64,000 bases of DNA, taken from the NCBI GenBank assembly GCA_021324575.1, contig JAJPIW010000006.1:5-64004 (forward strand), written 5' to 3'. A program made the translations under genes and the position numbers. Numbering within the stretch: position 1 is the first letter of the stretch; the number at the start of each line of letters is the position of its first letter. Positions 40,922 to 58,050 of this stretch are shown here, piece by piece. The notes under the pieces are model-generated. The model made no database searches, was not told where the DNA came from, and saw only the letters and a list, made by a program, of their open reading frames with translations. Origin of the DNA: Intrasporangiaceae bacterium. Lineage in GTDB: Bacteria > Actinomycetota > Actinomycetes > Actinomycetales > Dermatophilaceae.

Positions 40922-42337
40922 TCAGGGCAGGGTCAGGCCGGTGGGTTCGCAGACCGGCCGGCTGGGCTGGGCGGGTAGGGCGGCGCGGGCCAGGGCGCGG
41001 GCGAAGGCGCCGTCGGGGTTCCAGCCCTGCCGGGTCATCTCCGCGACCGCGCCGGCGGCCAGGTCCCGCCCCTGTTCGTCCGGCAGCGACTGGAGCAGCG
41101 GGGTCAGGGCGGCGGTGACGTCCGGGATGGGGCGGCGGGTGCCGGCCAGGACGGCGCGGACCAGCTCCGGCCCCGGCTGCCGCAGGAACGGGTTGCGGTG
41201 GGTGGTGCCGAGGCCGAGCCGGGTCAGGCCGTCGGGGCCATGCTGGGCGAGCCAGCCGGCCGGGTCGGTGCCGGGGTCGAGGTCGATGACCTGGACGTTG
41301 TGGCCGAGCTGGTGCAGCAGCATGGCGACCCACCGCTGGGTGCCGTCTCGCCCGGCGGCGTCGCCGTCCATGGCCAGGATGACCGGCCGGTCGGTGAGGG
41401 TGGCCACCCGGCGGGCCTGGGCGGCGCTGACGGTAACGCCACCGGCGGCGACGGCCAGCACATCGTGACGGCTGGTGTGGGCGACGGCTGCGGCGATGGC
41501 CAGGGCATCGAGCGGTCCTTCGACGACGACCACGCGGGGGTGCCCGCCGTGGGCCGGGGCTGGCAGGTAGAGGCTGGTGGCCTTGTCGTGGGTGACGGTG
41601 CGGGTCGGGTTGCGGTACTTCGGTGCCCGCGGGTCACCGCTGGTGTCGCGGCCGATCAGGCCGGCGATCCGGCCGTCGGCGGCGGTGACCGGGACGATGA
41701 GCCGGTCCCGGAGGCTGTCGATGAGGGTGCCTCGGCGGGTGGGCTGGGCCAGGTCGAGGGCGGTCAGCTCGTCGTCGGTGACGCCGCGCCCGCGCAGGTG
41801 GTCGGTCAGGGTGGTCCAGCCGGTCCCGGCGTGCCCGACCACGGGCCGGTCCAGTCGGGCTTCCAACGCGGCGACGTCCAAGCCGCGGCGGCGGCGGAGG
41901 TGGCTGACCGCGGCGGCGTGGCCGACCGGGTTGCTGTAGTGCGCCCACGCCATCGCGTTGATGGTGTACGCCCGCTCCGTCGGCGGCCCATGCGGTGCGG
42001 TCGGCGCGGGAACGGTTGCGGGAGAACCGAACTGGCGGGTGCCTGGGATCCGGTGTTCGAGGTGGGCGACGGCGTCGGTGAACGACAGGCCGTGCAGCCG
42101 CTCGACGAAGTCGATGACGTCGCCGGCCGCGCCGCAGCCGAAGCAGTGGAACCGGTCTGGGACGCCGCCGACCGACAACGACGGGGTGCCGTCGTCGTGG
42201 AACGGGCAGCACCCGACCCAGGCCCGGCCGGCCCGGCGCAGGTCGACACCGGCGGCGGCCACGACCTCGGGCAAGGGGTGGGCGGCCCGGACGGCGGCCG
42301 TGTCGATCGCGGGGCGGTTCACAGCTCGGCCCTGCAC
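40922..42337 (-). CDS. DNA primase-like protein (CHC2 zinc finger plus Toprim)
   Basis: The zinc finger is CCPFHDDGTPSLSV...FHCFGCGAAGDVIDF, with Toprim motifs VVVVEGPLDALA and ILAMDGDAAGRDG. Confidence 0.85.
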   Translation of the reverse strand: MQGRAVNRPAIDTAAVRAAHPLPEVVAAAGVDLRRAGRAWVGCCPFHDDGTPSLSVGGVPDRFHCFGCGAAGDVIDFVERLHGLSFTDAVAHLEHRIPGTRQFGSPATVPAPTAPHGPPTERAYTINAMAWAHYSNPVGHAAAVSHLRRRRGLDVAALEARLDRPVVGHAGTGWTTLTDHLRGRGVTDDELTALDLAQPTRRGTLIDSLRDRLIVPVTAADGRIAGLIGRDTSGDPRAPKYRNPTRTVTHDKATSLYLPAPAHGGHPRVVVVEGPLDALAIAAAVAHTSRHDVLAVAAGGVTVSAAQARRVATLTDRPVILAMDGDAAGRDGTQRWVAMLLHQLGHNVQVIDLDPGTDPAGWLAQHGPDGLTRLGLGTTHRNPFLRQPGPELVRAVLAGTRRPIPDVTAALTPLLQSLPDEQGRDLAAGAVAEMTRQGWNPDGAFARALARAALPAQPSRPVCEPTGLTLP

Positions 42338-43039: not shown

Positions 43040-43486
43040 TCAGGTGCCGGCGATCCCGGGGAGGCGGGTGCGCGGTGGCGGGTCGCGGTGCTCGTGCAGG
43101 GTGCACTGGGTCAGCGCGGCCTGCTCGTGGAGCAGCTGTCCGGCCTCGCGGTAGGCGCGGAGCCATTCCGCGGCCGAGCGCGGGTCGGCGTCCTCGGCGT
43201 AGGAGGCGCGTTCGTGGTCCCGCAGGGCGGCCAAGGCCTCGACCATGCCGTTGTGTCGAGCCCAGCAGGGCGGGAGGGTGCGGGCGTCGATGGCGAACCG
43301 GTCGATGAGCCGGTCGACCCACAGCGTCAGGTCGTCCATCGCGGCGGCCCGTTCCGCGGCGGTCAGGGAGGGGACGTGCATCGGCCCCCCGCCCGCGGGC
43401 CGGGTGCCGCCGGTGCCCTCCAGGGGGTGGAACCACGGCGGCTTGTCTCCCTCGGCCGGGTCCGGGGCGGGGTCAGGGGGTGGCAT
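43040..43486 (-). CDS. DUF4913-like protein (usual partner of actinobacterial coupling proteins)
   Basis: The core LTLWVDRLIDRFAIDARTLPPCWARHNGMVEALAALRD lies directly downstream of the T4CP gene. The start is uncertain. Confidence 0.65.
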   Translation of the reverse strand: MPPPDPAPDPAEGDKPPWFHPLEGTGGTRPAGGGPMHVPSLTAAERAAAMDDLTLWVDRLIDRFAIDARTLPPCWARHNGMVEALAALRDHERASYAEDADPRSAAEWLRAYREAGQLLHEQAALTQCTLHEHRDPPPRTRLPGIAGT

Positions 43487-45257
43487 GGGCGCGGTGGATC
43501 TCTGCTTCGACCCGCAACCGGTCGGCGGTCAGCTGCGCCGCGTCGGGGCGGGCGGTCCACGGGGTCAGGGTCAGGGCGATGGGTCGGGCCGCCCGCAGCA
43601 GCAGGATGGCCGTGCCGAACGGCAGGGTCCGCAGCCGGGCCGGTTCCAGGATCGGCACCTGCGTGGTCGACGTTGAGGTGCTGGTGTGCCCGTCGCGGCC
43701 TCGGCTGGTTGTGGTCGTGGCCTTGTCGCGTTGCCCGATCAGGGTGGACAGGTCTTGCAGGTCGCGGGCGTTGGACCCGCCGCCGAGGATGACCTTGACG
43801 ATGGCGGCGTCCCAGATCGCCGAGGCGGCGTGTTCGCCCCAGACGGCCCGGGCTTGGGCCAGGGACTGCAGGACCACGACGGTGGAGATGCCGGTGCCGC
43901 CGCCGTCGCTCATCAGGGCCGGCAGGGACGGCAGCGGGTAGTTCGCCGCCTCGTCCAGGACCAGCGCCAGCGGCGGGTCGAGACGGGAGCTGGCGGAGCG
44001 GGCAGCCAGCCGGCGCGCCGCCTCGGCGACGTCCTCGACGAACGCGCCGACCAACCCCGCGGTCGCGGCCGACCCGGTCGCGGTCCCGATCAGGTAGATG
44101 GTGCCGTTGCCGGTCAGGAACGTCTCGGGGTCGAAGTGCTCCCCCGGGCCGGGTGAGACAGCGTCCAAAACCAACGGGTCGGCCAGCGCCGCGAACGCGA
44201 TCGTGACCATCGCCCACACCGAGTCCCGCTGCCGCGGGTCGGCAGTCAGGATCGCGTCCAGCGCCTGATGCCAGGCGCCGGCCGCGCGAGGGTGGGAGGC
44301 CAGGATGACCACGGCCTCCTTGGCCTGCGCCGCCGACAACGACCACCGGTACAGGTCCGCCGACGTGTCCCCACCCAGGGCGGCAGCGTGCAGCAGGCAC
44401 CGGACCGCCTGCTCGGCGGAGGCCTGCCAGAAGGTCGAATCCGTCGTTCCCGCCGCGGTGGCCGACGTCAGCGCCTTGGCCCGGACCATCGCGATGTGCG
44501 GGTCGTCGCAGCCCCGGATTGGGGACCAGCGCGTCGCGGACCGGATGCCGCGAGCCAACCCCTGCGGGTCGAACACCGCCACCGGCCCGCGGCCCGTCCG
44601 GGCGTGCAACGTCGCCGTGAGGTTGTCCGGACGAGTGCTCGTGGTCAGGACCGGACCGGGCGCGTCCAGAATCATCGGGATCGCCAGGTGGATCCCCTTG
44701 CCCGACCGGGGCGGGCCGAGCACGACCAGCGAGTCCTCGACTGTGGCGTACACGTCAACCCCGCGACCCGCGCCCAGTCGGTAGCCAAGGTCGTTGACCC
44801 GCGGCTTGCTCAGCCCGGGACGCAGCGCACTGGCACGGGCCAACAGGGTCCGCGCGCTGGCCGCCCTTCGGATCTCACCGCGCGTCGCACACCCGTCGGT
44901 CCCCAACGCCACGACCGAAGGTCCTCCCCGGGCGAGCCGAAGGCAGACGCCGACGACAGCGATGGCGACCGCAATCACCAATGCCGTCGCCGACCAGTAC
45001 GCTGCCGGCGGCGGTGCGCCGGCACCCCAAACCCGATGCAACTCAAGTGGATTGGCCAAGGCCAAGAACGGTCTTGCGAGCGAGGGCCTCGGTCGTTGGC
45101 CTCCCGTGAACATGAAGGCGAGGTAGGCGCCGCCCTGAAGGACCCCCCACACGCCGCCAACCGTCAGTAGCGCTGCCCCAACAAGGTTGTCTGTCGAACC
45201 TGGATCCACCTTGGCCATCTGAACCGCCCTCTCGAGTCGTCGCAAGGGGAACGGCAC
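43473..45257 (-). CDS. Type IV secretion coupling protein (VirD4/TraG/TraD family)
   Basis: N-terminal TM helices, Walker A VVLGPPRSGKG and Walker B-like LALVLDEAANY. The start may be MAKVDPGS at 45218. Confidence 0.88.
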   Translation of the reverse strand: MPFPLRRLERAVQMAKVDPGSTDNLVGAALLTVGGVWGVLQGGAYLAFMFTGGQRPRPSLARPFLALANPLELHRVWGAGAPPPAAYWSATALVIAVAIAVVGVCLRLARGGPSVVALGTDGCATRGEIRRAASARTLLARASALRPGLSKPRVNDLGYRLGAGRGVDVYATVEDSLVVLGPPRSGKGIHLAIPMILDAPGPVLTTSTRPDNLTATLHARTGRGPVAVFDPQGLARGIRSATRWSPIRGCDDPHIAMVRAKALTSATAAGTTDSTFWQASAEQAVRCLLHAAALGGDTSADLYRWSLSAAQAKEAVVILASHPRAAGAWHQALDAILTADPRQRDSVWAMVTIAFAALADPLVLDAVSPGPGEHFDPETFLTGNGTIYLIGTATGSAATAGLVGAFVEDVAEAARRLAARSASSRLDPPLALVLDEAANYPLPSLPALMSDGGGTGISTVVVLQSLAQARAVWGEHAASAIWDAAIVKVILGGGSNARDLQDLSTLIGQRDKATTTTSRGRDGHTSTSTSTTQVPILEPARLRTLPFGTAILLLRAARPIALTLTPWTARPDAAQLTADRLRVEAEIHRAHATP

Positions 45258-45450
45258 CCAGGGGCCACTATGCGTGCAACCATCCCGGGACGCTCAAGTC
45301 GGCCAGAATCGAGCGATCATCCGGCTTCACGCGTGAGGGCAGCGGAGGGCGACCTTTCGACGCAGGACCTGTCGACCCACCATTCGGGATATGTGGGGGA
45401 TCCGTCCGGACATAGCCGATGGTCGGACGTGATGAGACAGACTTACGCGC

Positions 45451-45600
45451 ATGGATCGTGACGGTCATCAGGAGATCCATTACCGGGCCCTCGAAGGGGA
45501 CGTCGACGGCATTAGCGATCGACTCGCGGCCGGCGACGACATCAGCTGGACCGATAGACGAGGCTTCACGGCATTGCACTTCGCGGCCCAGCAGTCACAG
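45451..45600 (+). pseudogene. Truncated ankyrin-repeat gene fragment
   Basis: EIHYRALEGDVDGISDRLAAGDDISWTDRRGFTALHFAAQQ fits the ankyrin consensus (G-x-T-x-L-H-x-A). The reading frame runs straight into transposase-like sequence. Confidence 0.45.
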
Positions 45601-45913
45601 CGCAAGAAGCGTCCGGTCATCGTCAACGTCGCGGTCGCCCGCGAGCTGGCCGGATGGTGCTGGTCGTTGGCCACCCAGCCGCAGTAGATCCCGGCCCCCG
45701 AGCTGACCGTGGGGGTCAACGACCCGGACCGCCAGCGTGCGGAACGACCCGCGTCGAGGCTATGAGCAGCCGGTCCCACAACGACGTTCGCGTCGCCAGG
45801 GACGCGGTGACGCCCGACACTAGACTCGCGGCCTCCGTTCCCGCCGAACAGCCGGTCCTGCGGTACCCAACGGCGCATATCAGCCTTGACCACGCGTCGA
45901 CCACGACACGCTG
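45601..45913 (+). pseudogene. 3'-terminal remnant of an IS110-family transposase gene
   Basis: KRPVIVNVAVARELAGWCWSLA resembles the conserved C-terminal helix of IS110/IS116/IS902 transposases. No N-terminal DEDD domain is present, and frames are broken downstream. Confidence 0.4.
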
Positions 45914-46095
45914 ACCGGGCCCACGACCCCCACGCGTCACCGCCGTCCAAGAACCTCTCCACAAATCGAGGAAGTTCCGGCGCACCTATCTTGAGAACGA
46001 GGCACTCCATATCAGCCTCCGGCCGGTGGCCAACGAGTTGAACTGCCCTTCACGCGGGCGCGGTGAGGGTGCGGGAGGGTGCGAGCGGTCATGGT

Positions 46096-46593
46096 CTACG
46101 GGCCGAGTGCCGCCATGAGCGCGGGAACGTCTTGACGTGCCTCAGCTACAAAGCGAAGCATTGCTGACGGGGCGAGGTTGGCCCCGATCCACAGATACAT
46201 GTCGGGTTGGTTGTCGTTCTCGCTCACGCGGATAACGTCAGCACCCCCGGCTCCGCCGTCGGACTCTATGAAGGCCGTCCAGGGCCCAGGGCTTGCCGCT
46301 TGGACCCGCGCGCCGATAGCCGCGACGGATTCGGCCGGTGGGGCGTGTCCACCGAGCGCTTCGAGCAGCAGGGGGATGTCAGAGAACAGGTTGCCGATGA
46401 AACGCACGTCGTGACCAGACGCGGGCACGCCCTCACGGGTCACTCGCAGCTCCTCGTCCAATTCGTCCATCCGCACCCGGAGCCGACAGACCCCAGCAGG
46501 CATCTCCTCGACGCTGACTTCGAGCTTGCCCAGCGCGGAGAGCCGAGTCCTTATCGCTCTGACGTACGACTCGGTGAGCATCATGGGCCCCAT
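46096..46593 (-). CDS. Putative cognate immunity protein of the RHS toxin
   Basis: 165-aa ORF overlapping the RHS stop (an alternative ATG at 46584 gives an ATGA overlap). It has no signal peptide. The assignment rests on position only. Confidence 0.6.
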   Translation of the reverse strand: MGPMMLTESYVRAIRTRLSALGKLEVSVEEMPAGVCRLRVRMDELDEELRVTREGVPASGHDVRFIGNLFSDIPLLLEALGGHAPPAESVAAIGARVQAASPGPWTAFIESDGGAGGADVIRVSENDNQPDMYLWIGANLAPSAMLRFVAEARQDVPALMAALGP

Positions 46594-49500
46594 CCGAGAT
46601 AGCCGCCGTAGAAGGGGTAGTCCTTCCCTCCGAACCTGAGATTCTTAGGCACGTTCGGCGTGAGCTCACTCCATTCACAAGCACCGCCGCCCAAGCACAC
46701 GTCCACGTGTTGATAATTCATCTCGCCAACCGTGGGATTAAACTCGGGCGCAGGCTCGACGGAACCACCAGCCGCGCGAATCTCGCCAGCAGTCGTTGAT
46801 CGGAAACTGCCGTGGACGACACCTTGACCAGCCTCCTCAACTGTGCGCCCTTGGGCCCCTGAGAAGACCTCGCCAGCGTTCGGCATGGCGCTTTGGCCAC
46901 CGCGAGCGATGACTCTCGAATCCGAGATTAGGGGTTCTGCGGCAGTCGTCTCTGCAGCTCCGCTAGCGGCTTCTTCGGCGGCTCCTTCGGCTACTCCAAC
47001 CACACCTGCCTCGACGCCGTCGGTCAGGGGATCTAGGCCGCCTTGGGCAAAGTTTAGGACGGTAAGGAAAAAGATGCCAAGGTTGCTAGCTTCTTGTTTG
47101 CCGGTGGCTTCCTTCCAACTGGGATCTTCGTAGTCGATGCGGCTGCCGGGTTTGCCGTCGCTAAGTTGGCCGCCAATTTTGGCTACGGCTTTGGTCTTCT
47201 TGCCGACGATGAGGCCGTAGTCCACATTTGTGAGCCGACCCCTGCTATCTGTGCGGTATCCAGTGACGTGGTATCCGGTGAACGGTTTGTGGTGGTGGTG
47301 GTAGGTCTGGTAGGCGGCTCGGGCTTTGGCCGGTGCGGTGACCATGCCCATGCCGGTTTCGTCGCCGTACGCGTCGATTCCTCGTTGGCCGCTGGGGTCG
47401 CTGAGGGTGATGGGGCTGTTGTCGGCGTAGGAGTAGCCGTTGAGCGCGTTTCCGGTTTGGAGGATGGGGTCTAGGGAGGTGAAGCGTCCGAGGCTGGGTT
47501 GGTAGTCGCGGGCGCCGAGATGGACCGTGGTGACGGTGGACCAGGGGTTGGTGGGTGCGCCCAGGAACCCGTGGTCGGGGTCGGGCCAGGTGGGTGCGTT
47601 GGTGTCGCGCGAGTTGCCGAAGGGGTCATAGTGCCGCACGATGGTGGCGGCCGTGACGCCGTTTTCGGCGACGGTGGCGGTGCTTTGGGGGTCGACGTCG
47701 AACCAGTTGACGGTGGCGGTGGTGGAGCCGGCCGGTACGGTGCGGACGGCCACGGCGTGGCCCAAGGCGGTGTAGGTGCGGGTGGCGCGGGCGGTGCTCG
47801 CGCCGGGGGCGTAGTGCAGTTCGGTGTCGCCGAGGAGCAGCGTGGTGCCGGTGGTCGGGTCGGTTTGGGCGAGCAGGGTGCCGGACGCGTCGTAGGTGTC
47901 AGTCTGGGTGGCGGTGCCGATGTGGGTCGTGCCGAGGCGGTGTTCGGCGTCCCAGGTCAGGGTTTGGCCGGGGAGGGTGGTCATGGCGCCGTCGGCGTCG
48001 TAGGCGTAGGTGTCGGTGCCGGTGGTGGTCCAGCCGGTCCCGCCGGGGGTGGTGCCGGCCGGGGCTGTCGCGTGGGTGACCGCGGTGACGGCGTTGGGGC
48101 GGGTGACCCCGGCCCCGGGTGTGGGGTAGGCGTAGGTGTCGTTGGTGTCGGTGCCGCTGGCGGTGGTGGCATGCCGGTCGATCGAGGTGCGGTCGCCCAG
48201 TGCGTCGTAGGTGTAGGACTGCCAGTAGGGGGCGGGTCCGCCCAGGTTGCCGCTGCTGGGGCTGGTGGTGCAGCCGCCGGTTGTGGGGGTCCATGCCTGT
48301 CCCAGGCGCCCGGCCCAGTCGTAGGTGAAGCATTGTGTGTCGGTTGACGTTGATGCGGTGTCGACGACTTGGGTGATCTTGCCGGCATTGTCGAAGGTAT
48401 AGGCGCGGTTGGCCGCGACGTTGTTCGAGGAGGCGCCGGTGGTGGCTTCCACACCGGTGAGCCGTCCGGTGCCGTTCTCCCAGGTGTAGCTGTCGACCAG
48501 GTAGTTGTTGGCGTAACCGTGGGTGGTTTGCCCGAGCTGGCCCAGGGCGTTGTAGGCGATGGGCATGAGGTAGTCAGATCGCCCGGTGTAGGCGGCTAGG
48601 TTCCCGACGGTGGTGTACGACGAGGTCAGGGTTTCGGCGGGTAGTCCGGCCATGGCCGGGTCGGTCTGGGTGGCCAGGGTCTGGTCGGGGTTGTAGGTGT
48701 AGTTGGTGGTGTAGGTGGCTGCGGGGGCGGCTTGCACGGCTGGGATGCCGTATTTGGTGCCGGTGGGGTTGCCGGCGCTGTCGTAGCCGGTGATCGACTC
48801 GGTCCAGTTCCCGGTGGGTGTGTAGCGGGTGCTGGTCGACAGTTTTTCTTTGCCGTTGGGCACGGCCGGGTCGCTGTAGGTCCACCCGGCCAGCTGGGTG
48901 CCGCTGGTGCTTGTTCCGGCGTACTCGCCGGTGCGGTGGTCCAGTGCGTCGTAGCTGTAGGTGAGGGCCTGGTTGCGGTTGTCGGTGACGGTCAGGACTC
49001 GTCCGGCCAGGTCGTAGCTGGCGGTGGTGGTCCCGGCGTTGGGGTCGACGGACGTGGTTTGTTGGCCGAGCAGGTTGTAGGTCCAGGACCAGTGGTCTCC
49101 GGCGGTGTCGGTCAGGCCGGTTTGGCGTCCGGCGTGGTCGTAACCGTAGGTGAGGGTGTCGGCGGTCCCGGTCGGGGTTCCTCCGTGCCAGGTCAGTTGT
49201 TTGCTGGTGTTGCCGCGGGCGTCGAGGTACGTCGTGGTGGCGGTGCCGCCGGTCGGGGGGGTGGTGTCGACGTGGTCGCCGCGGTAGGCGTTGGTGGTGC
49301 GCCATTTCTCGGTGCCGAAGACCTTGAGGACGGTGGCGGTGGCCCGGCCGGCGCCGTCGAAGATGGTGTCGTTCTGGGTGGCGATGTTGCTTTCGCCGGC
49401 GCCGGGGACCAGAAGGGCGGCCGAGGGGACGGACCCCATCAGGTAGTTGCCGTTGGTGAGGACGGTTTGGCCGAGGGTGTCGCGGACGGTGTCGCTGACC

Positions 49501-52500
49501 AGGGTTCCGTTGCTGCCGGAGGTGCCCTGCTGGGCGCCCAAGGTTTGCGCTTCGGCGGGGACCTGGGTTTGGCGGACGCGGCCGAGCCCGTCGTACAGGG
49601 TGTAGGAGGTGACGGTGTTTCCGGTGGCGTTCAGGGTGGTCGTTCCGACGGCTGAGGTGCCGGTGGTGGACACGGTGTAGCTGTAGCTGGTGGACGGCGC
49701 GGAGGGGTAGGTGGCTTGGGCGCGCCCGGGCAGCCAGACCTGGCTGCGGCGGCCGAGCGGGTCGTAGGTGATGGTGGCCGTGGCCTGGTTCGGGTCGACC
49801 ACGGACGTCGGTGTTCCCCAGGCGGGGGCTGCTTGGGTGATCGTGTGCAGCCCGGCAGCGTCGGCGACATCGGATTGGGTGAGCGGGCCGACGTTGCCGG
49901 TCAGCGGCGCTACACCGGAGGGGGTGTAGCTGGTGGTGCTGGTACGCCCGAGGGCGTCGGTGCTGCCGGTTTGTCGGCCGAGGGCGTCGTACGTGGCATT
50001 TTGCTGGGCTGTTTGCCAGACGGCGGTGTCTTCGGTGGTTCCGGTGTAGCTGGTGGCTTCTTGGGTTTGGGTGAGGTCGCCCTTGGTCGGGACCTGACCG
50101 GTGAAGGTGGTGGCCCCGTCGTAGAAGGAGCGGGTGTCGTTGATCGTGTCGGTGTGATAGTTGGGGGTGGCGGTGCAGGTCACCCCCACGGTGTTCACGT
50201 CGGCCGGCAAGTTCAGACGGTTGGCGCCCGGGTTGTCGGCGTAGCTGGTGCGGGTGCACCGGTCGTCACCGGCGGTGGAGGTGTCGCCCAGGTCGTCGAC
50301 CGCGGTGACCCGCCCGTAGCTGTCGTAGGTGTTCTTGGTGTCGGTGACCCGGTTACCGCCGGCGGAGAGGGCGGTGTAGGTCGTGGTGTCGGCATCACCG
50401 GTGTGTCTGGCCGTGTTGACGCCGTCGTTGGCGGTGACCGCCGAAGCCCACGGGGTAGTGACCGCGTCGGACACCATCGGGCCGGGGCTCGTGCCGCTCA
50501 TCCCGTTGTAGATGACGGTTTCCAGGGCTTGCCCGGCCCACCACAGCGAGTCCGTCACATGGGTTCCGTTGCTGGCGGCCAGGGTGACGGACTTGGTGCC
50601 CCCAGTCGGGGAGGCCTTGTCCCCGTCCATGCCCTGGAAGTAGGTGTCGTCTTCGACTTGCTGCCCGGTCGGGTTGGCGGGGTCTCCATGAGTGACCCGG
50701 ACCTTGCTGTACCCGGCCCAGACCGACCAGGTCCGGGACGCGTCGGGGACAAGCGGTGAGGTGTCGTACCTCCAAGCGGGGGTGCTCAGGCTGTAGTTGT
50801 AGAACGTCTCGGTCGCGGGGGTGGTGGTGGCGCCCTGGTCGCCGGTCACGCCGTCCTCGGTGACCTGGGCAAGGGGGTACTTGTTGAACCAGTCCATGAA
50901 CGCGGCCCCGCCCGGCGGGGTCCACCACTGCGGGAAGCACCGCATGGTGTTGGTTTCGGGCTTGGCGGGCAGGTTGGTGGACGTGCATTGCGCCGGGGTG
51001 TAGCCGACGTTGATGGTGCCGCCCTGTTCGGTGCTGATGGTCGCGATGCGCTGCTTCATCAGCGCCGGCCACCCGCCGGTCGTGGCGGTCCGGTTCTGCA
51101 GCCAGATCCCGGAGAACTGGACGTCGGGCATGGTGGCGGTGCCGCCGACCAGTCCGGCGTGGGTGATCCCGGTCAGCCACAACATCGCGGAGGTGCCGTC
51201 GGTCGGGTTGGGGTAGGCCTGGTGCAGGCTCCACTTGTCCACCAGCACGTAGCTGCCGGCGGTGTTGCGGTACTGCGTGGTCACGGTGTCCAGCCGCTGG
51301 GACGACCAGAACGTGGGGTCGGTGATCGCGCAGGCGGAGACAGTGCAGCTATAGTCCCAGGGGACGTCCGGCCAGTCTTGGGGGTCGGTGCTGTTGCAGA
51401 CCGTGCTGGGCAGGCAGCGCGAGGCGGGGGTGAACACCACCTGCTCGGGGGCCGGTGAGGTCAGCTCGAACCCGTGCTGCATGCCGTAGTCGATCCTGGA
51501 CAGGAACCCGCCCCGGATGTACGACACGATCGTGGTGCCGTTCTGCTTGTAGTAGTTCGTCTCCGGGGTGTAGTACAGGGCCTGGCTGTTGCCGTGGACG
51601 TCGACGACGTAGTCCAGGTTCCACCGGTAGGCCTGGGTGCAGACGCTGGTGGCGAAGGTCGTCCCGTGGCAGGGTTCACCGGTGTTGTTGCCGAAGACCG
51701 GTGCGGTGAAGGTCGACTGGGTCGTCGGGTTTCCGGTGGTCCAGCCGGGCAGATGGTTCAGACCGAAGTAGTACTGGGTGCCGTCGGTGGTGGTCAGGCG
51801 CCAGTACTCCCCCTGGTTGGCACCGTTGACTGCGCCAGTCAGTTTTTCCACCTTGGTGTTGTCGTCACCTTGCAGGTGCCACCCGGTGGTCGGGTCGTTG
51901 ACGATGGTGCCGGAGTGACCGGCGAAGGTCACGGTGGCGTTGTCGCTCTTCCAGCACTGGTCGTTGGAGCCTGCCTGCCCGTCTTGCGCGCAGGGGACGT
52001 AGCGGCGTTCGATGGCGCCGCCGGCCTGCAGGGACCACCCGTCGCCCAGGGCGCTGGGCTGGTTGTTAGCGGCGGCCGTCTCCCCATCCAGCGACCCGGA
52101 GTCGTAGCTGAACGCGACGTCCGGTTCCGGTCCGGCCGCGGCCGGCGGCACCCGCAGCGGGTAGTTGTAGGTGAAGTCACCGGTCTGCTCGGTGGCCTGC
52201 CACGCGGTCGACGCCGACAGGGAGGTCGCGGAGAAGGTGCCGGTGCCGGACGCGTCCGGGGCGGCCGTTCCCGCCATCGCGGTCGCCGAGGCAAGCGGGG
52301 CCGATGCCGACGTGGACGAGCGTCGGGTGGCCGGCCCTGCCGGGGTGGGGTTGGCGGTGGTCACCGCGAGGACGACAGGGGTGTCGCCGACGGCGACGGC
52401 GGCGTCGTCGGTGCGGACCGTGTCACGGCTACCGGGTGAACCGCTGGGGGATACCGTCGCAGTGGACACGGCCTGCGGCTGCCCGGTCGGGCCGGTGGTG

Positions 52501-53009
52501 AGGGTGGTCCAGCGGGCCCGGCGGGCAAAGTCGGCGCCGAACAGCCGGGTCAGCTCGGCCGGGGCAAGGGACACCGCAACCGTGGCCGGGGCGGGAGCAT
52601 CCGTGCGCTCCAGCTGCACAGCCAGGCCGGGCACACCAGCCCGGCGCGGGTCGCCGGGCGACAGGATCTCGACGCGTAGCTGCGGGGCGTCACCGGTGAC
52701 GGCCAGGGGCCGGATGGTCAGGCCGCTTTGCCCGACTGATGCGCGGGAGGTGTGGGAGGTGGCGAGGGTGAACCGGCCGGCGGCTGGTCCCGGGCCGGGC
52801 GGGGTCACGCTGGCCCTGGACTCAGCTGGTCGGGCGTGGGCGGTGGCGTGGCCGCCGGGCACCGGTTTGATCGTCTGCATCCGGGGGTGGACGGCGCCCC
52901 CGGCAACAGCCGCCGCGAACCCTGCCGACGGGTGCAGGCCGGTGACCACCACGACGACGCTGGCGGCAGCCGCCGCAGCGCGACGCATCAGAACAGCACG
53001 ACCGGACAC
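46581..53009 (-). CDS. RHS/YD-repeat polymorphic toxin with a variable C-terminal domain
   Basis: About 2142 aa. The likely start is GTG 53009, 5 nt after AAGGAGG (the track starts at TTG 53027), followed by a signal peptide. There are many YD repeats (YDALGR, YDPLGR, YDLAGR, YDGLGR, YDADGA, HYDPFGN). The core ends ARDYQPSLGRFTSLDPI...YADNSPITLSDPSGQ and is followed by a tail of about 265 aa. Confidence 0.9.
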   Translation of the reverse strand: MSGRAVLMRRAAAAAASVVVVVTGLHPSAGFAAAVAGGAVHPRMQTIKPVPGGHATAHARPAESRASVTPPGPGPAAGRFTLATSHTSRASVGQSGLTIRPLAVTGDAPQLRVEILSPGDPRRAGVPGLAVQLERTDAPAPATVAVSLAPAELTRLFGADFARRARWTTLTTGPTGQPQAVSTATVSPSGSPGSRDTVRTDDAAVAVGDTPVVLAVTTANPTPAGPATRRSSTSASAPLASATAMAGTAAPDASGTGTFSATSLSASTAWQATEQTGDFTYNYPLRVPPAAAGPEPDVAFSYDSGSLDGETAAANNQPSALGDGWSLQAGGAIERRYVPCAQDGQAGSNDQCWKSDNATVTFAGHSGTIVNDPTTGWHLQGDDNTKVEKLTGAVNGANQGEYWRLTTTDGTQYYFGLNHLPGWTTGNPTTQSTFTAPVFGNNTGEPCHGTTFATSVCTQAYRWNLDYVVDVHGNSQALYYTPETNYYKQNGTTIVSYIRGGFLSRIDYGMQHGFELTSPAPEQVVFTPASRCLPSTVCNSTDPQDWPDVPWDYSCTVSACAITDPTFWSSQRLDTVTTQYRNTAGSYVLVDKWSLHQAYPNPTDGTSAMLWLTGITHAGLVGGTATMPDVQFSGIWLQNRTATTGGWPALMKQRIATISTEQGGTINVGYTPAQCTSTNLPAKPETNTMRCFPQWWTPPGGAAFMDWFNKYPLAQVTEDGVTGDQGATTTPATETFYNYSLSTPAWRYDTSPLVPDASRTWSVWAGYSKVRVTHGDPANPTGQQVEDDTYFQGMDGDKASPTGGTKSVTLAASNGTHVTDSLWWAGQALETVIYNGMSGTSPGPMVSDAVTTPWASAVTANDGVNTARHTGDADTTTYTALSAGGNRVTDTKNTYDSYGRVTAVDDLGDTSTAGDDRCTRTSYADNPGANRLNLPADVNTVGVTCTATPNYHTDTINDTRSFYDGATTFTGQVPTKGDLTQTQEATSYTGTTEDTAVWQTAQQNATYDALGRQTGSTDALGRTSTTSYTPSGVAPLTGNVGPLTQSDVADAAGLHTITQAAPAWGTPTSVVDPNQATATITYDPLGRRSQVWLPGRAQATYPSAPSTSYSYTVSTTGTSAVGTTTLNATGNTVTSYTLYDGLGRVRQTQVPAEAQTLGAQQGTSGSNGTLVSDTVRDTLGQTVLTNGNYLMGSVPSAALLVPGAGESNIATQNDTIFDGAGRATATVLKVFGTEKWRTTNAYRGDHVDTTPPTGGTATTTYLDARGNTSKQLTWHGGTPTGTADTLTYGYDHAGRQTGLTDTAGDHWSWTYNLLGQQTTSVDPNAGTTTASYDLAGRVLTVTDNRNQALTYSYDALDHRTGEYAGTSTSGTQLAGWTYSDPAVPNGKEKLSTSTRYTPTGNWTESITGYDSAGNPTGTKYGIPAVQAAPAATYTTNYTYNPDQTLATQTDPAMAGLPAETLTSSYTTVGNLAAYTGRSDYLMPIAYNALGQLGQTTHGYANNYLVDSYTWENGTGRLTGVEATTGASSNNVAANRAYTFDNAGKITQVVDTASTSTDTQCFTYDWAGRLGQAWTPTTGGCTTSPSSGNLGGPAPYWQSYTYDALGDRTSIDRHATTASGTDTNDTYAYPTPGAGVTRPNAVTAVTHATAPAGTTPGGTGWTTTGTDTYAYDADGAMTTLPGQTLTWDAEHRLGTTHIGTATQTDTYDASGTLLAQTDPTTGTTLLLGDTELHYAPGASTARATRTYTALGHAVAVRTVPAGSTTATVNWFDVDPQSTATVAENGVTAATIVRHYDPFGNSRDTNAPTWPDPDHGFLGAPTNPWSTVTTVHLGARDYQPSLGRFTSLDPILQTGNALNGYSYADNSPITLSDPSGQRGIDAYGDETGMGMVTAPAKARAAYQTYHHHHKPFTGYHVTGYRTDSRGRLTNVDYGLIVGKKTKAVAKIGGQLSDGKPGSRIDYEDPSWKEATGKQEASNLGIFFLTVLNFAQGGLDPLTDGVEAGVVGVAEGAAEEAASGAAETTAAEPLISDSRVIARGGQSAMPNAGEVFSGAQGRTVEEAGQGVVHGSFRSTTAGEIRAAGGSVEPAPEFNPTVGEMNYQHVDVCLGGGACEWSELTPNVPKNLRFGGKDYPFYGGYLGWGP

Positions 53010-53049
53010 GTAGGCCTCCTTGGTCAACGTCGAACAGACAGGAACACGG

Positions 53050-56000
53050 TTAGATGCCGCCGCCGGGAGGGAGGGCGGAAAGCTGGAGGTCGGTCAGGGC
53101 GCCGGCGTACGTGATCGGGTTCTGGACGGACCCGGTGAACCATCCCGACCCGGTCGAGGTCGTGGTGCCGCGGCCCACCCGGAACACCCCGGTGCTCGCC
53201 GCGGCGGGCGCCGTGACGGTGGCCGCAGACGCCGCCGGGGTCACCGTTCCCGAGGTCGGCGGGTTGACGTACAACCGCAGCTGGGAACCTCCCCGTCCGC
53301 CCGGGTCGTACACGACGGCCAGGGTGTCCCAGCCGCCGGTAGCGGGTGTCGTTCCGGCGGTGCACGTGCCGTTGAGGCAGGCCTGGTAGTTGCCGCTGCC
53401 GTCCACGCCCAGTGTGAGGACGCTGGCTGTGCCGGCGGCGTTGTCCTGGGAGGCCAATGTCACGTTCCGGGCGCTGGTCGGCACCTGGGCGTAACCGGAC
53501 ACGGAAAACCCGTTGGACACGTTCACCGGGGCCGTGTTTGCGGTGTCGGCCTCACCGGTGCCGGCGAACGTCATCGCACCACCGGCGCCGGCCGGCCCGG
53601 TGGTGGCCCACCCAACCGCGGAGGACAAGGTCAGCGTCGTCCCGGCGACGGTGTCGATCACGGCGGACGGACGCGACCCGGTCGCGTCGGTCACCCACGC
53701 ATGGGTCTGCGAGGGGGTGGATGCGTTGAGCGTGCCCGAGGACCCGGCGATCTTGCCCGCGTCCGGGTTCGAGGTCTGGTCGTAGGCGACGGCGCTGATG
53801 GCGAAGGTCCCGACCGCCTCCGGGACATAGTTGAACGTGTACGACCACGTGGTCCCCGACCCGGACGGGCACAACCAGTGGACCTGGTTGATCGCGTCCC
53901 AGCCGGTGGGATTGGACGGCGACGGGCACGACACGGTGCCCGGTTTGAGCGCCGGGAACGTCGGGGTCGCGGCGTCGGACCAGGCGATCCACGCCTGGGA
54001 CTGCGCGTCGGTTGTCGTGGCGATCGTGACCGGGGCCGCCTGCCCGACCGGCGGCCCTCCCGACGTCCCGGCGAACGCGGTCGCCGACACGGTCGGCGTC
54101 GCCGGGAGGGCGTTGTTCACAGTAAAGGTGCACGACGCGGCGGCCGAGGTGTTGTTCGCAGTCGACGGGGACGTGTTGGTGGCCGTCACGGTCACCGTCG
54201 CATTGGACCCGCTGGCGAACGTTCCCGCGGGGATGGGCGAGCCGGCCACGACCGTGCTGCCCGAGTTCGTCAGGGCGCTGGTCCACGACCATGACCCGGC
54301 CGTGAACTTGACGGTCATCTGCTTGCCGTCCGGGTCGGACACCGTCGCCTGCGGGGTGATCGGCTGGTCCCCGCGGACAGTCCCACCGCACGCCACATCC
54401 GGCGAGGCGGACTTCACCCCGGTCGGGGTGCCTGGGGCCGGGTCGCTGATCACGACCTTGCACCAGGTGGACACCGGCCCAGAGGGTTCGGGGCTGGTCC
54501 CAGTGAAGACCCCATCTCGGGGGTACCAGCGGAAGGCCAACGAAAAACCATGCGGGAACGAGGCGCTGCCGGCACCCACCGAGTAGGACACCGTGCCACC
54601 CGACGACACCGTCCCCGACGACCACGACGTGACCAAGGTGGTTTCGTCGGCTTGATACTCCTGGAAGAAGCCGTGGACCGCGTAGCCGGCCGGGTCAGCC
54701 AACTTGGCGTTCAGCGTGAACGCCTCGGACCCGTCGACGGTGATCGTTTGCTGGCTGGCGCATGTATCCGTTTGGGTTGTGCCGCCGTTCACCTTGTGGG
54801 ATACCGACACGGCCGACACGCTCGGCGGGGAGGTGTACGTCACGGTCATCGTGGTGGTGAAATCCTTCAGCGTGTACGCGCCAGCGACATCGTTGCCGCG
54901 GAACCCGAAGTAGTCGGTGTTGGTTCCCTTGGCCACCTCCGCCGCGACGTAGCTGGTCAACCCGGAGCCCGTCAACGTCCCCGTCGTGCCGCCCAGCGAT
55001 CCGGACGCCAGGACGGTCCCGGTCCCGATCGCGCCGGCATAATTCAACGCCGTCGCGTGATACATGTACGTGGGCTCGCTGGTGGACGTTCCCCCGCACG
55101 TGCACTTGGTCGCCGTCACGTAGGCGTTGGTCACCTCGGTGCCCAGAATGCTGGACAGGTCATAGTGGCCGACCGACCTCCAGTACACCGTGGTGCCCGC
55201 CTCGTTGGGGTTGCCCGTCTGCGAGGTGCACGCGCCGCACACCGTCCCATCGCTCTTGTACGCCGTCACGTTCGTGTCCCCGATCGTCGGGTCGATATCG
55301 ATCGGGAACGCCGAGGCCGGCTGCGCCGCGAGCCACACGGGGTCGATCGAGACCGTCAGCTGCCCGTTCGAGACACCCATCACCGCGTGCGCCTGCCCAA
55401 ACCCGTCGCCATCGGCCGTCACCACCAGCGGCGCGTACAGGTGCAGCTGCTGACCCAGGGCACCGCTCGGAGTCAGCGACCCGTCAGCCTGCGCCACCAA
55501 CGACGAGGCATCCGTCGACGAACTCGTCGACGACGACAGCATCGTCGACGACACCGACGACCACGAGCCCGTGTCGACAGCGAACGAGAACGACGACCCG
55601 GCCGAGGCGTCCTTGAGCAGGATCGACTCCTTCACCAGATCACCACGAACCTGATACGTCAGGTCCGTCGAGGGCCACACATTCGCATACGTCACCCCGT
55701 CCCCGGCCGTGTTGCGCACCGGCGCCACCGACGACCCACCAACCGGGGCGACCACGATCGACCCAGCCGAGGTCGTCACCGCCACACCTTGGGAGGAGGC
55801 ACCAAAATGAGCACCCCATGAGTTCGCCTTGTTGACCAACCCGCCCGAGACCGACGGGTCGGCCACCAACGTGTTGTCGATCGGGTGCCACGCACCCGCT
55901 GAGTCCTGGTAGTTCACCGCGGCATCGGAGGACACCAGGGTCTGCGTTCCATCCGCATTGGCGTAGTTCGTCCACGACAACCCGAGCCCGTTGGCGACTG

Positions 56001-56157
56001 AGCTCGCCGCGTCAAACCCCAGCGGAACCGTCGCGGCGACAGCGGCGCCAGGCCCGGCGGTAACCGCCAGACCAGCCAGCGCCAGGACCGCCGCCATCGA
56101 CCCAACCCTCAACCGCGCCAGCCTCGTCACGGGCCTGCCCCGCACAGGCAACCGCAT
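53050..56157 (-). CDS. Large secreted protein with a C-terminal LamG/concanavalin-A-like domain
   Basis: ATG at 56157 (MRLPVRGRPVTRLARLRVGSMAAVLALAGLAVTAG signal peptide). The body is Thr/Ser/Gly-rich and predicted beta-rich. The C-terminus reads LRLYVNP...VFRVGRG...GWFTGSVQNPITY. The gene lies 40 bp upstream of the RHS gene. Confidence 0.75.
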   Translation of the reverse strand: MRLPVRGRPVTRLARLRVGSMAAVLALAGLAVTAGPGAAVAATVPLGFDAASSVANGLGLSWTNYANADGTQTLVSSDAAVNYQDSAGAWHPIDNTLVADPSVSGGLVNKANSWGAHFGASSQGVAVTTSAGSIVVAPVGGSSVAPVRNTAGDGVTYANVWPSTDLTYQVRGDLVKESILLKDASAGSSFSFAVDTGSWSSVSSTMLSSSTSSSTDASSLVAQADGSLTPSGALGQQLHLYAPLVVTADGDGFGQAHAVMGVSNGQLTVSIDPVWLAAQPASAFPIDIDPTIGDTNVTAYKSDGTVCGACTSQTGNPNEAGTTVYWRSVGHYDLSSILGTEVTNAYVTATKCTCGGTSTSEPTYMYHATALNYAGAIGTGTVLASGSLGGTTGTLTGSGLTSYVAAEVAKGTNTDYFGFRGNDVAGAYTLKDFTTTMTVTYTSPPSVSAVSVSHKVNGGTTQTDTCASQQTITVDGSEAFTLNAKLADPAGYAVHGFFQEYQADETTLVTSWSSGTVSSGGTVSYSVGAGSASFPHGFSLAFRWYPRDGVFTGTSPEPSGPVSTWCKVVISDPAPGTPTGVKSASPDVACGGTVRGDQPITPQATVSDPDGKQMTVKFTAGSWSWTSALTNSGSTVVAGSPIPAGTFASGSNATVTVTATNTSPSTANNTSAAASCTFTVNNALPATPTVSATAFAGTSGGPPVGQAAPVTIATTTDAQSQAWIAWSDAATPTFPALKPGTVSCPSPSNPTGWDAINQVHWLCPSGSGTTWSYTFNYVPEAVGTFAISAVAYDQTSNPDAGKIAGSSGTLNASTPSQTHAWVTDATGSRPSAVIDTVAGTTLTLSSAVGWATTGPAGAGGAMTFAGTGEADTANTAPVNVSNGFSVSGYAQVPTSARNVTLASQDNAAGTASVLTLGVDGSGNYQACLNGTCTAGTTPATGGWDTLAVVYDPGGRGGSQLRLYVNPPTSGTVTPAASAATVTAPAAASTGVFRVGRGTTTSTGSGWFTGSVQNPITYAGALTDLQLSALPPGGGI

Positions 56158-56592
56158 GAATGGCCGACGCTGGACTCCGGCCGGACGCCGAAAGAACCCG
56201 TCGGTTCCGCTGATGCTGGCCCCAGCCTGCCCACTGCCCACAAGAACCCTCCCGGCGCTGGGGACGTGAACCCCCGGAAAATCAACTTCGATGCTGCGCA
56301 GCGGTTACCAAACCCGAGGATCCCCACCAGCGGCAGCAAGCACCGGAACTGGTGCCCGAGACCGGGATACAACCAGTCAGTGGCCGAGCGCCAGCGCTAC
56401 CGAAAATTTTACGAAATCCGTACCAACGTTTTACCCAACCATGGGGTATTTGGCGGCATATTCCCAGACTCTCCACCCTGAATTCTCAGGCAAGGCGGAA
56501 GTGCCCGACCGTACACTCCGCGGGATCCTCGTCGTCCTGCTGAGTACCCTGAACACTCAACTTCCCGCCGGAACCGTCGACAATCCTGGGAA

Positions 56593-58050
56593 CTACCGGG
56601 AAACAGGAATCATTCGCTGGTTGGTGTCGAAGAGGGCGAGTTCGTCCTCGGTGGCAACGTGCCGGACGACGAAGGCGTGTTGGCCAACTCGCCATAGCCC
56701 TTCCCCGCGTTGCAGGTCGGGGAGTTGGGCGCGCTCGGCCGAGGTGAGGCCGAGGTGGGTTGCGGTGTTTGCGGATTCGCTGACTTCCTGTTGGTAGACG
56801 ATCTTGGTGGAGCAGTCGCCGAGCAGTCCGCGGGCGAGTGCTCGGGCTTCGGAGGTGGCGTCGCCGACGGCGTCCAGGTCGGACAGTCGGTGGACGATCA
56901 GGAGGTTGGCGATTCCGAGGCCGCGGGAGAGTTTCCATTGGGACTGCATCCGCGCGAGCAGCGCGGGTTGCCGCATCAGGCGCCAGGCCTCGTCGTAGAT
57001 GACCCAGCGTTGGCCGCCGTCGGGGTCGGCGAGGGCGGCTTCCATCCAGGCGGAGGCGCAGGTCATCACCATGGCCAGGAGCTGGTCCGAGCCTTGGATG
57101 GCGGCCAGGTCGAGGGTGACCATCGGTAGGGAGGGGTCGAACCTGACGGTGGAGGGTCCGTCGAACAGCCCGGCGAGGTCGCCAGCGACCAGGCGTCGCA
57201 GGGCGTGGCCGAGGTCGCGCCCGTCCCGGGCGAGCTGGACAGGGGTTGCCCCCGCCATCGATGTCGACGGGCCGAGCAGGGCTTGGACGACACCGGGCAG
57301 TGTTGGGGTTGTTGAGGATTCGAGCGCTGCGTAAAGGGCGGCGTCCAGGGCGGTGTGTTCGGTGGCGGCGAGGGGTCGGCCGAGGCTGGATTCGGCCAAG
57401 GACCCGAGGAGTGTTCGCCGGCGGCGGGCTGTCTCGGTGTGCCACTGCTCGTCGGCCAAGCCACGGGGTCGGGGGCCGGGGTCCAGTGGGTTGACCCGGT
57501 TGCCGGTTCCCGGTCCGAGACGGATCGAGATCCCGCCGACGGCCTGAGCGACGGCGGTCCACTCCCCTTTGGGGTCGCCGGGGACGTAGACCCGGCGGCC
57601 GAAGGCGATCGAGCGGGTGGCGATCGACTTGGCCAGGCAGGACTTGCCCTTGCCGACGACCCCGGCCAGTAGCGCGTTGGGATTGGTCAGGACGCCGTCG
57701 GCGTAGAGCACCCACGGGTCGTAGCAGAAGCCGCCTCCGGACCAGGCGTCCTGGCCGATGTAGACGCCGTGGCCGCCGAGGCCGCCTTCGGCGAGGAACG
57801 GGTAGGCACCGGCGACCGTGTCGGAGGTGCCCCGGTGGGCGGGGAGTCGGAGCTCGTGCCAGGACCGTCCGGCCTGCGGTCCGGTCTCGCCGCCAGCCGG
57901 CAGGTAGGCGGCACCGTCAGCCCTGTCGGGCGTGTCGGGATCGGTTGCCGGGCGGGCCGGCCGGGTGATGGCCGGCGGCCGGCGGCCGAACCATCGCCGC
58001 CGGGCGCCGGCAGGCTCGTAGAACGCCGCCGGCGCGGACCAGGGCGCCAT
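56593..58050 (-). CDS. VirB4-like conjugal transfer ATPase (ATPase half)
   Basis: 485 aa with Walker A GVVGKGKSCLAKS and Walker B RWVIYDEAWRL. Confidence 0.85.
   Translation of the reverse strand: MAPWSAPAAFYEPAGARRRWFGRRPPAITRPARPATDPDTPDRADGAAYLPAGGETGPQAGRSWHELRLPAHRGTSDTVAGAYPFLAEGGLGGHGVYIGQDAWSGGGFCYDPWVLYADGVLTNPNALLAGVVGKGKSCLAKSIATRSIAFGRRVYVPGDPKGEWTAVAQAVGGISIRLGPGTGNRVNPLDPGPRPRGLADEQWHTETARRRRTLLGSLAESSLGRPLAATEHTALDAALYAALESSTTPTLPGVVQALLGPSTSMAGATPVQLARDGRDLGHALRRLVAGDLAGLFDGPSTVRFDPSLPMVTLDLAAIQGSDQLLAMVMTCASAWMEAALADPDGGQRWVIYDEAWRLMRQPALLARMQSQWKLSRGLGIANLLIVHRLSDLDAVGDATSEARALARGLLGDCSTKIVYQQEVSESANTATHLGLTSAERAQLPDLQRGEGLWRVGQHAFVVRHVATEDELALFDTNQRMIPVSR

Follow-up and report, generated by a model that had tools for sequence, protein, structure and literature searches.

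The RHS/YD-repeat polymorphic toxin gene of an Intrasporangiaceae bacterium (contig JAJPIW010000006.1) raises the question of whether its 3' end and the small gene behind it form an exchanged toxin and immunity module, and what the encoded toxin might do. The window, by which we mean the whole stretch of 64,000 nucleotides analysed, provides all coordinates used below, and the gene is read from its - strand (Table 1). An earlier inspection of the letters alone (the sequence-only reading) had proposed a swapped C-terminal toxin tip followed by an immunity gene. Our analysis leads us to predict, with a probability of roughly 0.8, that a secreted RHS polymorphic toxin has its variable module, a "warhead" with its "antidote", at positions 46096-47384.

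The gene product matched Pfam RHS_repeat in three stretches (E 1.3e-5) and TIGR01643 YD_repeat_2x (E 3.6e-6), and residues 1500-1881 retrieved 44 RHS homologs. The N-terminus of the protein, MRRAAAAAASVVVVVTGLHPSAGFA, looks like a Sec/Tat signal peptide, with a maximal KD19 hydrophobicity of 1.77 within the first 100 residues, and a Pfam scan of the protein returned no PAAR, VgrG, LXG or WXG module. The end of the RHS core had been placed at the motif SPITLSDPSGQ, which we located at 47385-47417 on the - strand. The boundary motif described for Rhs proteins is PxxxxDPxGL, with two DPxGL motifs 17 residues apart (PMC8636562). The core boundary seen here matches this motif and the paired DPxG pattern, its DPILQ and PITLSDPSGQ being spaced 19 residues and its last residue being Q, not L; cleavage itself is predicted. 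Everything beyond residue 1881 forms the variable tail of 267 residues (46584-47384), a slight correction to the length of about 265 codons given before, and the toxin gene closes with a TGA stop codon at 46581-46583. By these sequence-level features, the gene is one of the RHS polymorphic-toxin class.

Beyond the core motif the DNA changes in composition. Overall guanine-plus-cytosine (GC) content was 0.72-0.74 at 47500-48250 versus 0.57-0.61 at 46450-47350, and approximately 0.66 over the downstream open reading frame (ORF). At third codon positions (GC3) the values were 0.896 for the core (1881 codons), 0.640 for the tail (267 codons) and 0.753 for the immunity ORF. As a reference, 208 segments of 267 codons from 13 other genes of the window had a GC3 of 0.917 ± 0.036 (standard deviation, sd; minimum 0.81), which places the tail 7.7 sd under the other genes. 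The maximum-likelihood single change point fell at codon 1913 (approximately 47288), 32 codons past the core end, with a GC3 of 0.894 before and 0.617 after it (likelihood-ratio statistic 105). This break in composition is genuine and far exceeds what chance would give. GC content is thus not uniform across the junction, and both the less GC-rich DNA described in the sequence-only reading, including the 30-mer quoted at 47049, and its continuation into the immunity gene were found as claimed.

Such a shift might also arise with no acquired cassette at all, as an assembly chimera or as an effect of amino-acid content or relaxed codon selection. The window does derive from a soil metagenome assembly, and core and tail also differ somewhat at first and second codon positions. 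However, the source soil metagenome also yielded an independent 9.6-kb Logan contig that spans 44000-50000 with zero differences and flat k-mer depth; as this contig crosses the junction, the junction is not an assembly chimera. The reading frame is likewise unbroken across it. Third positions account for most of the drop (0.90 to 0.64), so that it is not an effect of amino-acid composition. The same drop in four unrelated high-GC genomes and a mosaic pattern of sequence identity, both described below, also speak against an explanation without a cassette, which we regard as extremely improbable.

Comparison with other loci (denoted by L numbers) points in the direction of cassette exchange. 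The toxin domain at the end of the tail was 58-71% identical to its counterparts in loci where the RHS cores were only 25-37% identical (L008, L018-L020, L022); against L022, identity was 0.40 in the core, 0.25 in the linker and 0.62 in the toxin domain. The nearest core, found in a Frankiales metagenome-assembled genome (MAG; L017), was 49% identical, with an alignment that ended at residue 1890 and a different tail beyond. The same core-to-tail drop in GC3 was observed wherever the domain is joined to an RHS core in a high-GC genome, from 0.97 to 0.62 in L013, from 0.93 to 0.60 in L016, from 0.92 to 0.64 in L020 and from 0.98 to 0.68 in L022, and the immunity genes of these and related loci had a GC3 of 0.61-0.77. 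The cassette keeps its low-GC3 composition across high-GC hosts, and this recurrent signature makes it a clean example of module mobility. The module's own lower GC3, combined with the presence of the same domain on unrelated RHS, PT-HINT and small secreted scaffolds, indicates that it was acquired by recombination just past the core motif. Displacement of a toxin/immunity cassette, as originally proposed, is therefore supported by the GC3 break, the mosaic identity, the adjacency of the two genes in 10 other loci and the unrelated delivery scaffolds.

The part of the tail that recurs elsewhere is its C-terminal domain. A word-indexed search with the whole tail gave 12 proteins, and in all of them the alignment was confined to the C-terminal 31-56% of this query. 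A1, a profile made from these close homologs, was scored against 1.84 billion representative proteins and gave 355 matching representatives at E<=1e-3, of which 103 reached E<=1e-30. The toxin domain occupied the extreme C-terminus in every match listed, and the host proteins ranged from 81 to 4263 residues; N-terminal modules seen among 146 members include RHS (23), PT-HINT (14), PT-TG (1) and plain signal peptides. A genome scan, for which a 13-sequence alignment was used as query, detected the domain in Actinomycetota, Stenotrophomonas, Verrucomicrobiota, Myxococcales and Acidobacteria. Being always C-terminal, on varied scaffolds and also in orphan arrays, it behaves as C-terminal domains of polymorphic toxins do by definition. 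We therefore predict that the final 118 residues form a real, recurrent and mobile toxin domain of an undescribed family.

Orphan toxin/immunity arrays were seen in two of the loci. In L002 (3453-7121), the array lies 3' of a large RHS gene and the toxin domain stands beside a barnase-like/barstar pair; in L001 (255-7290), it stands beside a Colicin-DNase/WHH-type gene, and the two arrays between them also include an Imm53 gene. At 7655-8001 of L004/L006 (MAG contig_40368), two frames share the toxin domain, which lacks its first ~13 positions and is followed by an intact immunity homolog; the copy is an orphan or degraded remnant of a toxin, unless a long-read error has caused the frameshift. 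The toxin and the immunity gene each occur once in the window, and the phage and plasmid collections contained no match to the toxin domain.

Conservation was counted over 157 members of the family, some of which are only 34-47% identical to the domain of the window. In addition to the residues listed in Table 1, G2043, G2044, G2087, G2088 and P2094 are invariant or near-invariant, and H2072 is H in 140/156 members and Y in 11. The motif set of the family comprises RGG, FSG, TTAG-IR, GG-V, PE, N-x-x-H-V and N-x-P-K-x-x-R. Such conservation of S, T, R, E, N, H and R across divergent members appears enzyme-like. AlphaFold2 (AF2) modelled the toxin as a mostly beta domain of ~100 residues, in which two or three short helices accompany eight short strands (predicted local distance difference test, pLDDT, 79.8; predicted template modelling score, pTM, 0.76).

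Searches for known families gave no assignment for this domain. Pfam, NCBIfam, PADLOC and PHROGs contained no toxin match for the tail, the domain, the 146 members or 10 maximally diverse sequences at E-values up to 10; searches of PDB sequences with the single sequence and two profiles gave only spurious triosephosphate-isomerase and RHS-core matches; and Foldseek comparison of the toxin model with PDB and BFVD gave nothing at E<=0.001. The statement in the sequence-only reading that the tail could not be assigned to a known toxin fold holds after these profile and structure searches.

The length of 165 aa first given for the downstream ORF results from an upstream in-frame ATG at 46593. Homologs of the immunity protein begin at MM or MI equivalent to 46584, and these homolog starts together with the ATGA overlap make ATG 46584 the most likely start. 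In total, 96 homologs of the immunity protein were found. In every inspected locus with the toxin subtype of the window, an immunity homolog was located directly 3' of the toxin gene, with an overlap of 1-7 nt. The pairing was evaluated over ten distinct loci (L001, L002/3, L004/6, L005, L007, L008, L018/19, L020/21, L022 and L023), so that the proposed succession of toxin and immunity gene stands, with the start corrected from 46593 to 46584 and the product from 165 to 162 aa. On this genomic evidence we are confident that the downstream ORF is the cognate immunity gene; neutralisation of the toxin is predicted. The immunity protein has neither a signal peptide nor a transmembrane segment, and its isoelectric point (pI) is 4.7 (family median 4.46). 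A soluble immunity protein of this kind points to the cytoplasm as the toxin's site of action.

The confident AF2 model of the immunity protein (pLDDT 90.7, pTM 0.87) shows an alpha-beta3-alpha unit that is present twice in tandem. The same duplication is seen in alignment A3, in which the motif F-[IV]-x-x-A-x-x-D-[IV]-P-x-L-[LM] occurs twice. A PGPW motif at residue 99, in the second unit, is invariant; in the distant immunity homolog P0106, PGPW is present in the first unit too. Foldseek comparison of the immunity model with PDB gave nothing at E<=0.001, and the immunity profile matched nothing among PDB sequences. Residues 91-163 aligned with positions 7-67 of phrog_1667 (E 5.6e-6), i.e. 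with part of the profile only, and tblastn of the immunity protein gave a weak match to Gordonia phage gp87 (E 3e-3), the only one in the phage and plasmid collections. A literature search for "PGPW" returned only irrelevant papers. In view of the phrog_1667 and gp87 matches, the earlier remark that this PGPW motif is of a phage-associated type holds. The similarity of phrog_1667 and of gp87 from the Gordonia phages Asapag and Birdsong covers the C-terminal unit (aa 89-163); these phage proteins are single-unit and of function not known, whereas the immunity protein is a tandem duplication and resides in a toxin locus, not in a phage.

More distant relatives of the toxin (L009-L015, 45-58% identical) are followed by an unrelated second protein of ~100-130 aa, at about 4240-4660 in each locus. 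This second immunity candidate carries YREFYDVPR, LDCPFD, DDY and FD-T-R motifs and has no Pfam match. In L016 (Nonomuraea sp.), a third type of protein follows the toxin. Polymorphic toxin systems typically pair a single toxin fold with several immunity solutions. With regard to expression of the immunity gene, the tail contains a promoter-like site (TTGGCA-18 nt-TAAACT; 47051-47080, - strand) upstream of both the toxin domain and the immunity gene; the promoter scan yielded 1 site versus 0.4 expected, which is not significant, and the terminator scan found none. Internal promoters for immunity genes are known in RHS-type toxin loci.

The linker that connects core and toxin domain had no homologs in the tail search or by tblastn, and no Pfam match, including PT-TG (PF14449), at E<=0.1. 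Its His patch YHHHHKPF, pointed out in the sequence-only reading, is present and has no detectable relatives, and nothing supports a function for it. The hydrophobic Gly-rich segment considered there as a pre-toxin or translocation element is present as well; given the lack of a PT-TG match, it can be called PT-TG-like in position only. Of 82 members, 55% had a stretch with KD19>=1.2 within the 120 residues that precede the domain, compared with 8% of 238 controls (Mann-Whitney p 1.6e-24 for the hydrophobic Gly/Ala-rich stretch). The contrast is somewhat flattering, since the controls were taken from the same proteins at a greater distance upstream and consist mostly of hydrophilic RHS repeats. 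The hydrophobic pre-toxin segment is a recurrent accessory of the toxin family, and a role in membrane passage can reasonably be inferred.

The same recurrence just upstream of the domain would fit a toxin in which this segment (aa 1984-2012) is itself the toxic principle, inserting into membranes or forming pores, and the 118 residues are an accessory. We consider this very unlikely, as the conserved mobile unit is the 118-residue domain, which is also found on small secreted proteins without such a segment. The linker, moreover, has no homologs, its KD19 reaches only 1.26 in the window, and the immunity protein is soluble, whereas proteins that confer immunity to pore-formers usually reside in the membrane.

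For the C-terminal domain, the single most likely activity, put forward tentatively, is that of a metal-independent RNase of the Glu/His/Arg type. Predicted metal-independent RNase toxins are recognised by their size, fold, Glu/His/Arg inventory and acidic immunity proteins (PMC3482391). The domain of the window suggests such an activity because it combines a Glu/His pair and two Arg with ~100 residues, a mostly-beta fold and an acidic cytoplasmic immunity protein.

Several observations weigh against the interpretation developed so far. A near-identical RHS core with a different tail was sought and not found, the best being the 49% identical core mentioned above, so that the swap is read from composition and mosaic identity and was not directly witnessed. 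The toxin model is only moderately confident, with a pLDDT below 50 for the last 16 residues. The assignment as RNase is based on residue inventory and size alone; no barnase, T1, ColE3 or BECR structure appeared in the Foldseek top 50, and there was no Pfam match. Furthermore, the domain is not basic (pI 4.9; family median 6.1). As no RNase fold or family was matched, "works like an RNase" is meant as an inference about activity, not as a claim of membership.

The sequence-only reading had instead likened the domain to R-S-E ADP-ribosyltransferases (ARTs) on account of VIARGG, FRSTT and CEWSE, which are present within 46665-46913 as then placed. The domain would in this case be a minimal R-S-E ART or an ART-fold NADase that uses NAD+ and has a protein or RNA target. 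Consistent with this, strand 1 ends in hhhRGG (R2042), FRSTTAG forms a strand and then a helix in the AF2 model, like STS motifs, T2079 and E2095 are invariant, and a neutral or acidic pI fits an enzyme with a small-molecule cofactor. The best Foldseek match was AvrPphF ORF2/HopF2 (1s21), an ART-like type III effector, over 73 aligned columns (Foldseek probability 0.51). ART tips are also common on RHS toxins (PMC8661411, PMC9825190).

Two of the three legs of the R-S-E assignment fail, however, and it is not supported. The Glu of CEWSE is not conserved, those positions being mostly P, and the Arg of VIARGG (R2042) is R in 127/150 members, K in 15, H in 2 and M, I or F in individual members. 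At the S-T-S position, T2079 is invariant, T2078 is T in 82% and the first position, S2077, is variable. The catalytic [QE]-x-E of an ART is expected at a strand start, ~35-50 residues past the STS motif, whereas E2095 lies only 16 residues past the TT motif, in a P-E context and with no [QE]xE. The window had no ART match in Pfam or NCBIfam, and the 146 members had none in Pfam, even at permissive E-values. To our knowledge, the ~100-aa core is smaller than any known ART domain. The match to 1s21 is at chance level (E 0.7, TM-score normalised to the query, TMq, 0.34, 15% identity), and no second ART-like structure was present in the Foldseek top 50. Considering the two failed legs and the chance-level match, we judge an ART to be unlikely.

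About equally likely as the RNase is an enzyme of different or new chemistry, which could be nucleotide-modifying, protein-modifying or a DNase with a new fold. This would accord with the searches of Pfam, NCBIfam, PADLOC, PDB and BFVD, none of which gave a relative by sequence or structure, and with the conserved Gly-rich loops (RGG, FSG, GG), which resemble those that bind phosphate or nucleotides. Polymorphic-toxin domains of new fold that were validated recently, moreover, proved to be DNases (10.1101/2021.10.19.465003). The non-basic pI is mildly against a non-specific DNase, and nothing else specific speaks against this alternative. Orphan toxin domains have repeatedly proved to be new enzymes, such as nucleases, base-editing deaminases and NAD- or nucleotide-targeting toxins. 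A bolder proposal, which we hold to be doubtful, is that of a new fold with a new toxic chemistry, neither a known RNase nor an ART, which a self-contained low-GC cassette would have spread to five or more phyla and which two or more unrelated types of immunity protein would counter. In the window it would arm a Sec-exported RHS protein that a conjugative element encodes, and the element may use it to kill or exclude neighbours that lack the element.

The module could act as follows. As judged from how RHS toxins work, the protein would be exported via its signal peptide, the RHS shell would enclose the tail, and aspartyl autoproteolysis at DPSGQ would release it. Encapsulation, aspartyl autocleavage and release are taken from the Rhs proteins of type VI secretion systems (T6SS) and from Tc toxins (PMC8636562). 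The hydrophobic pre-toxin segment might aid the crossing of the target membrane, and the toxin domain would then act as an enzyme in the cytoplasm of the neighbour. The producer would be protected by 1:1 binding of the immunity protein, whose gene is translationally coupled to that of the toxin. In the most speculative step, in which the activity is that of a metal-independent RNase, H2107 and E2095 would serve as an acid/base pair, R2084 and R2131 would bind phosphate, and S2056, T2079 and N2104 would position the substrate.

The swapped-tip RHS architecture is textbook and not new; the value of the locus lies in its tip. The toxin domain is compact and, with hundreds of representatives, widespread among soil and freshwater bacteria from several phyla; it has no family model or PDB relative, and the immunity partner is confidently identified and equally unannotated. 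The pair is experimentally tractable, and a short list of invariant residues is now available for it.

The RHS gene lies within a co-directional, conjugation-like gene cluster (39178-61604, - strand; Table 1), and an RHS toxin carried by a mobile element could be of use to that element. Directly upstream, at 53050-56241 (- strand), is the gene for a 1063-aa protein that has no Pfam match and, by eye, a hydrophobic signal-peptide-like N-terminal stretch. The same layout is seen in L022, with a 1158-aa orphan protein (L022 1-1616), a 2111-aa RHS protein, an immunity gene and a TrwC relaxase ~5 kb off; tblastn revealed no similarity between the 1063-aa and the 1158-aa protein. On the other side of the module, six-frame translations of the spacer behind the immunity gene gave no convincing ORF, and the spacer showed no similarity to other loci. 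Its + strand has a weak Ank_4 match at 45451-45687 (E 0.017), with coding-like frame-specific GC. The spacer may belong to the acquired segment or be what is left of a decayed gene.

Table 1. Features of the RHS toxin locus and its surroundings, with positions in the window and residues of the 2148-aa RHS protein; fractions give the members of the toxin family in which a residue is conserved.
Feature	Position	Strand	Residues	Basis or remark
RHS/YD-repeat polymorphic toxin gene	46581..53027	-	2148 aa	ORF; Pfam RHS_repeat; NCBIfam YD_repeat_2x, Rhs_assc_core
RHS-associated core domain	47385..47630	-	1800-1881	TIGR03696, 57.6 bits, E 1.3e-15; end of conserved shell
DPILQ, candidate aspartyl-autoprotease motif	47457-47471	-	1853-1857	
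PITLSDPSGQ, candidate aspartyl-autoprotease motif	47385-47414	-	1872-1881	
Pre-toxin linker	46938..47384	-	1882-2030 (149 residues)	No homologs; GC3 change point ~47288 inside
His patch YHHHHKPF	47280-47303	-		Within linker
Hydrophobic Gly-rich segment GIFFLTVLNFAQGGLDPLTDGVEAGVVGV	46992-47078	-	1984-2012	KD19 1.26
Predicted C-terminal toxin domain	46584..46937	-	2031-2148 (118 residues)	Homologs, profile search, AF2 model
Conserved Ser (FSG)			S2056	151/153
Conserved Thr (TTAG)			T2079	153/157
Conserved Arg			R2084	143/156
Conserved Glu (PE)			E2095	154/157
Conserved Asn (N-x-x-H-V)			N2104	155/155
Conserved His (N-x-x-H-V)			H2107	155/155
Conserved Asn			N2125	148/151
Conserved Arg			R2131	149/149
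Predicted cognate immunity gene	46096..46584	-	162 aa	From ATG 46584; ATGA overlap with toxin TGA
Lower-GC spacer, ~840 bp	45258..46095			GC 0.63-0.69; immunity stop codon to coupling-protein gene
DnaG-type primase	40922-42337	-		
VirD4/TraG coupling protein	43473-45257	-		Type IV secretion system (T4SS)
AAA_10-like ATPase	56593-58050	-		
EccE-like membrane protein	58052-59494	-		
TrbL/VirB6-like protein	59491-60849	-		

Neither the toxin nor the immunity protein of the window matches a named Ntox, Tox or Imm family. Among described toxins, the RNase families Ntox9, Ntox22, Ntox37, Tox-ColE3 and others (Zhang et al. 2012, PMC3482391) appear similar in several respects: they measure ~100 aa and are mostly or all beta, have conserved His, Glu and Arg and no metal-binding acidic cluster, and occur on RHS and HINT scaffolds with Sec-type or type II secretion system (T2SS)-type export and small immunity proteins. 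In contrast, their Pfam models match neither the domain of the window nor its 146 relatives, and the accessible portion of the family table in that source holds no counterpart to the toxin motif set (PMC3482391).

T6SS Rhs proteins with ART tips, namely Photorhabdus Rhs1-Tre23 and Salmonella Rhs-TreTu, have the tripartite RHS architecture in common with the gene of the window (PMC8636562, PMC8661411, PMC9825190). Further points of likeness are the PxxxxDPxG boundary, two DPxG motifs ~17-19 residues apart and a downstream immunity gene. In Rhs proteins, the C-terminal tip is also known to differ from the shell in GC content and codon usage (PMC8636562). Unlike these systems, the window has no PAAR, prePAAR, VgrG or EagR features and belongs to an actinobacterium without T6SS context; its second motif is DPSGQ, not DPLGL, and its tip is not a recognisable ART.

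WapA/WapI of B. subtilis is reportedly a Sec-exported, wall-associated RHS/YD-repeat toxin with a polymorphic C-terminal tRNase and an immunity protein, and appears to be the closest functional analogue of the system of the window. The two differ in that the toxin and immunity domains of the window are unrelated in sequence to those of WapA/WapI, its RHS gene lies inside a conjugation-like cluster, and a Pfam scan of its RHS protein finds no wall-binding domain. They are alike in their monoderm host and in the use of a signal peptide, not of a T6SS/PAAR/VgrG adaptor, and both combine a YD/RHS shell and a variable C-terminal toxin with a small cytoplasmic immunity protein encoded directly downstream.

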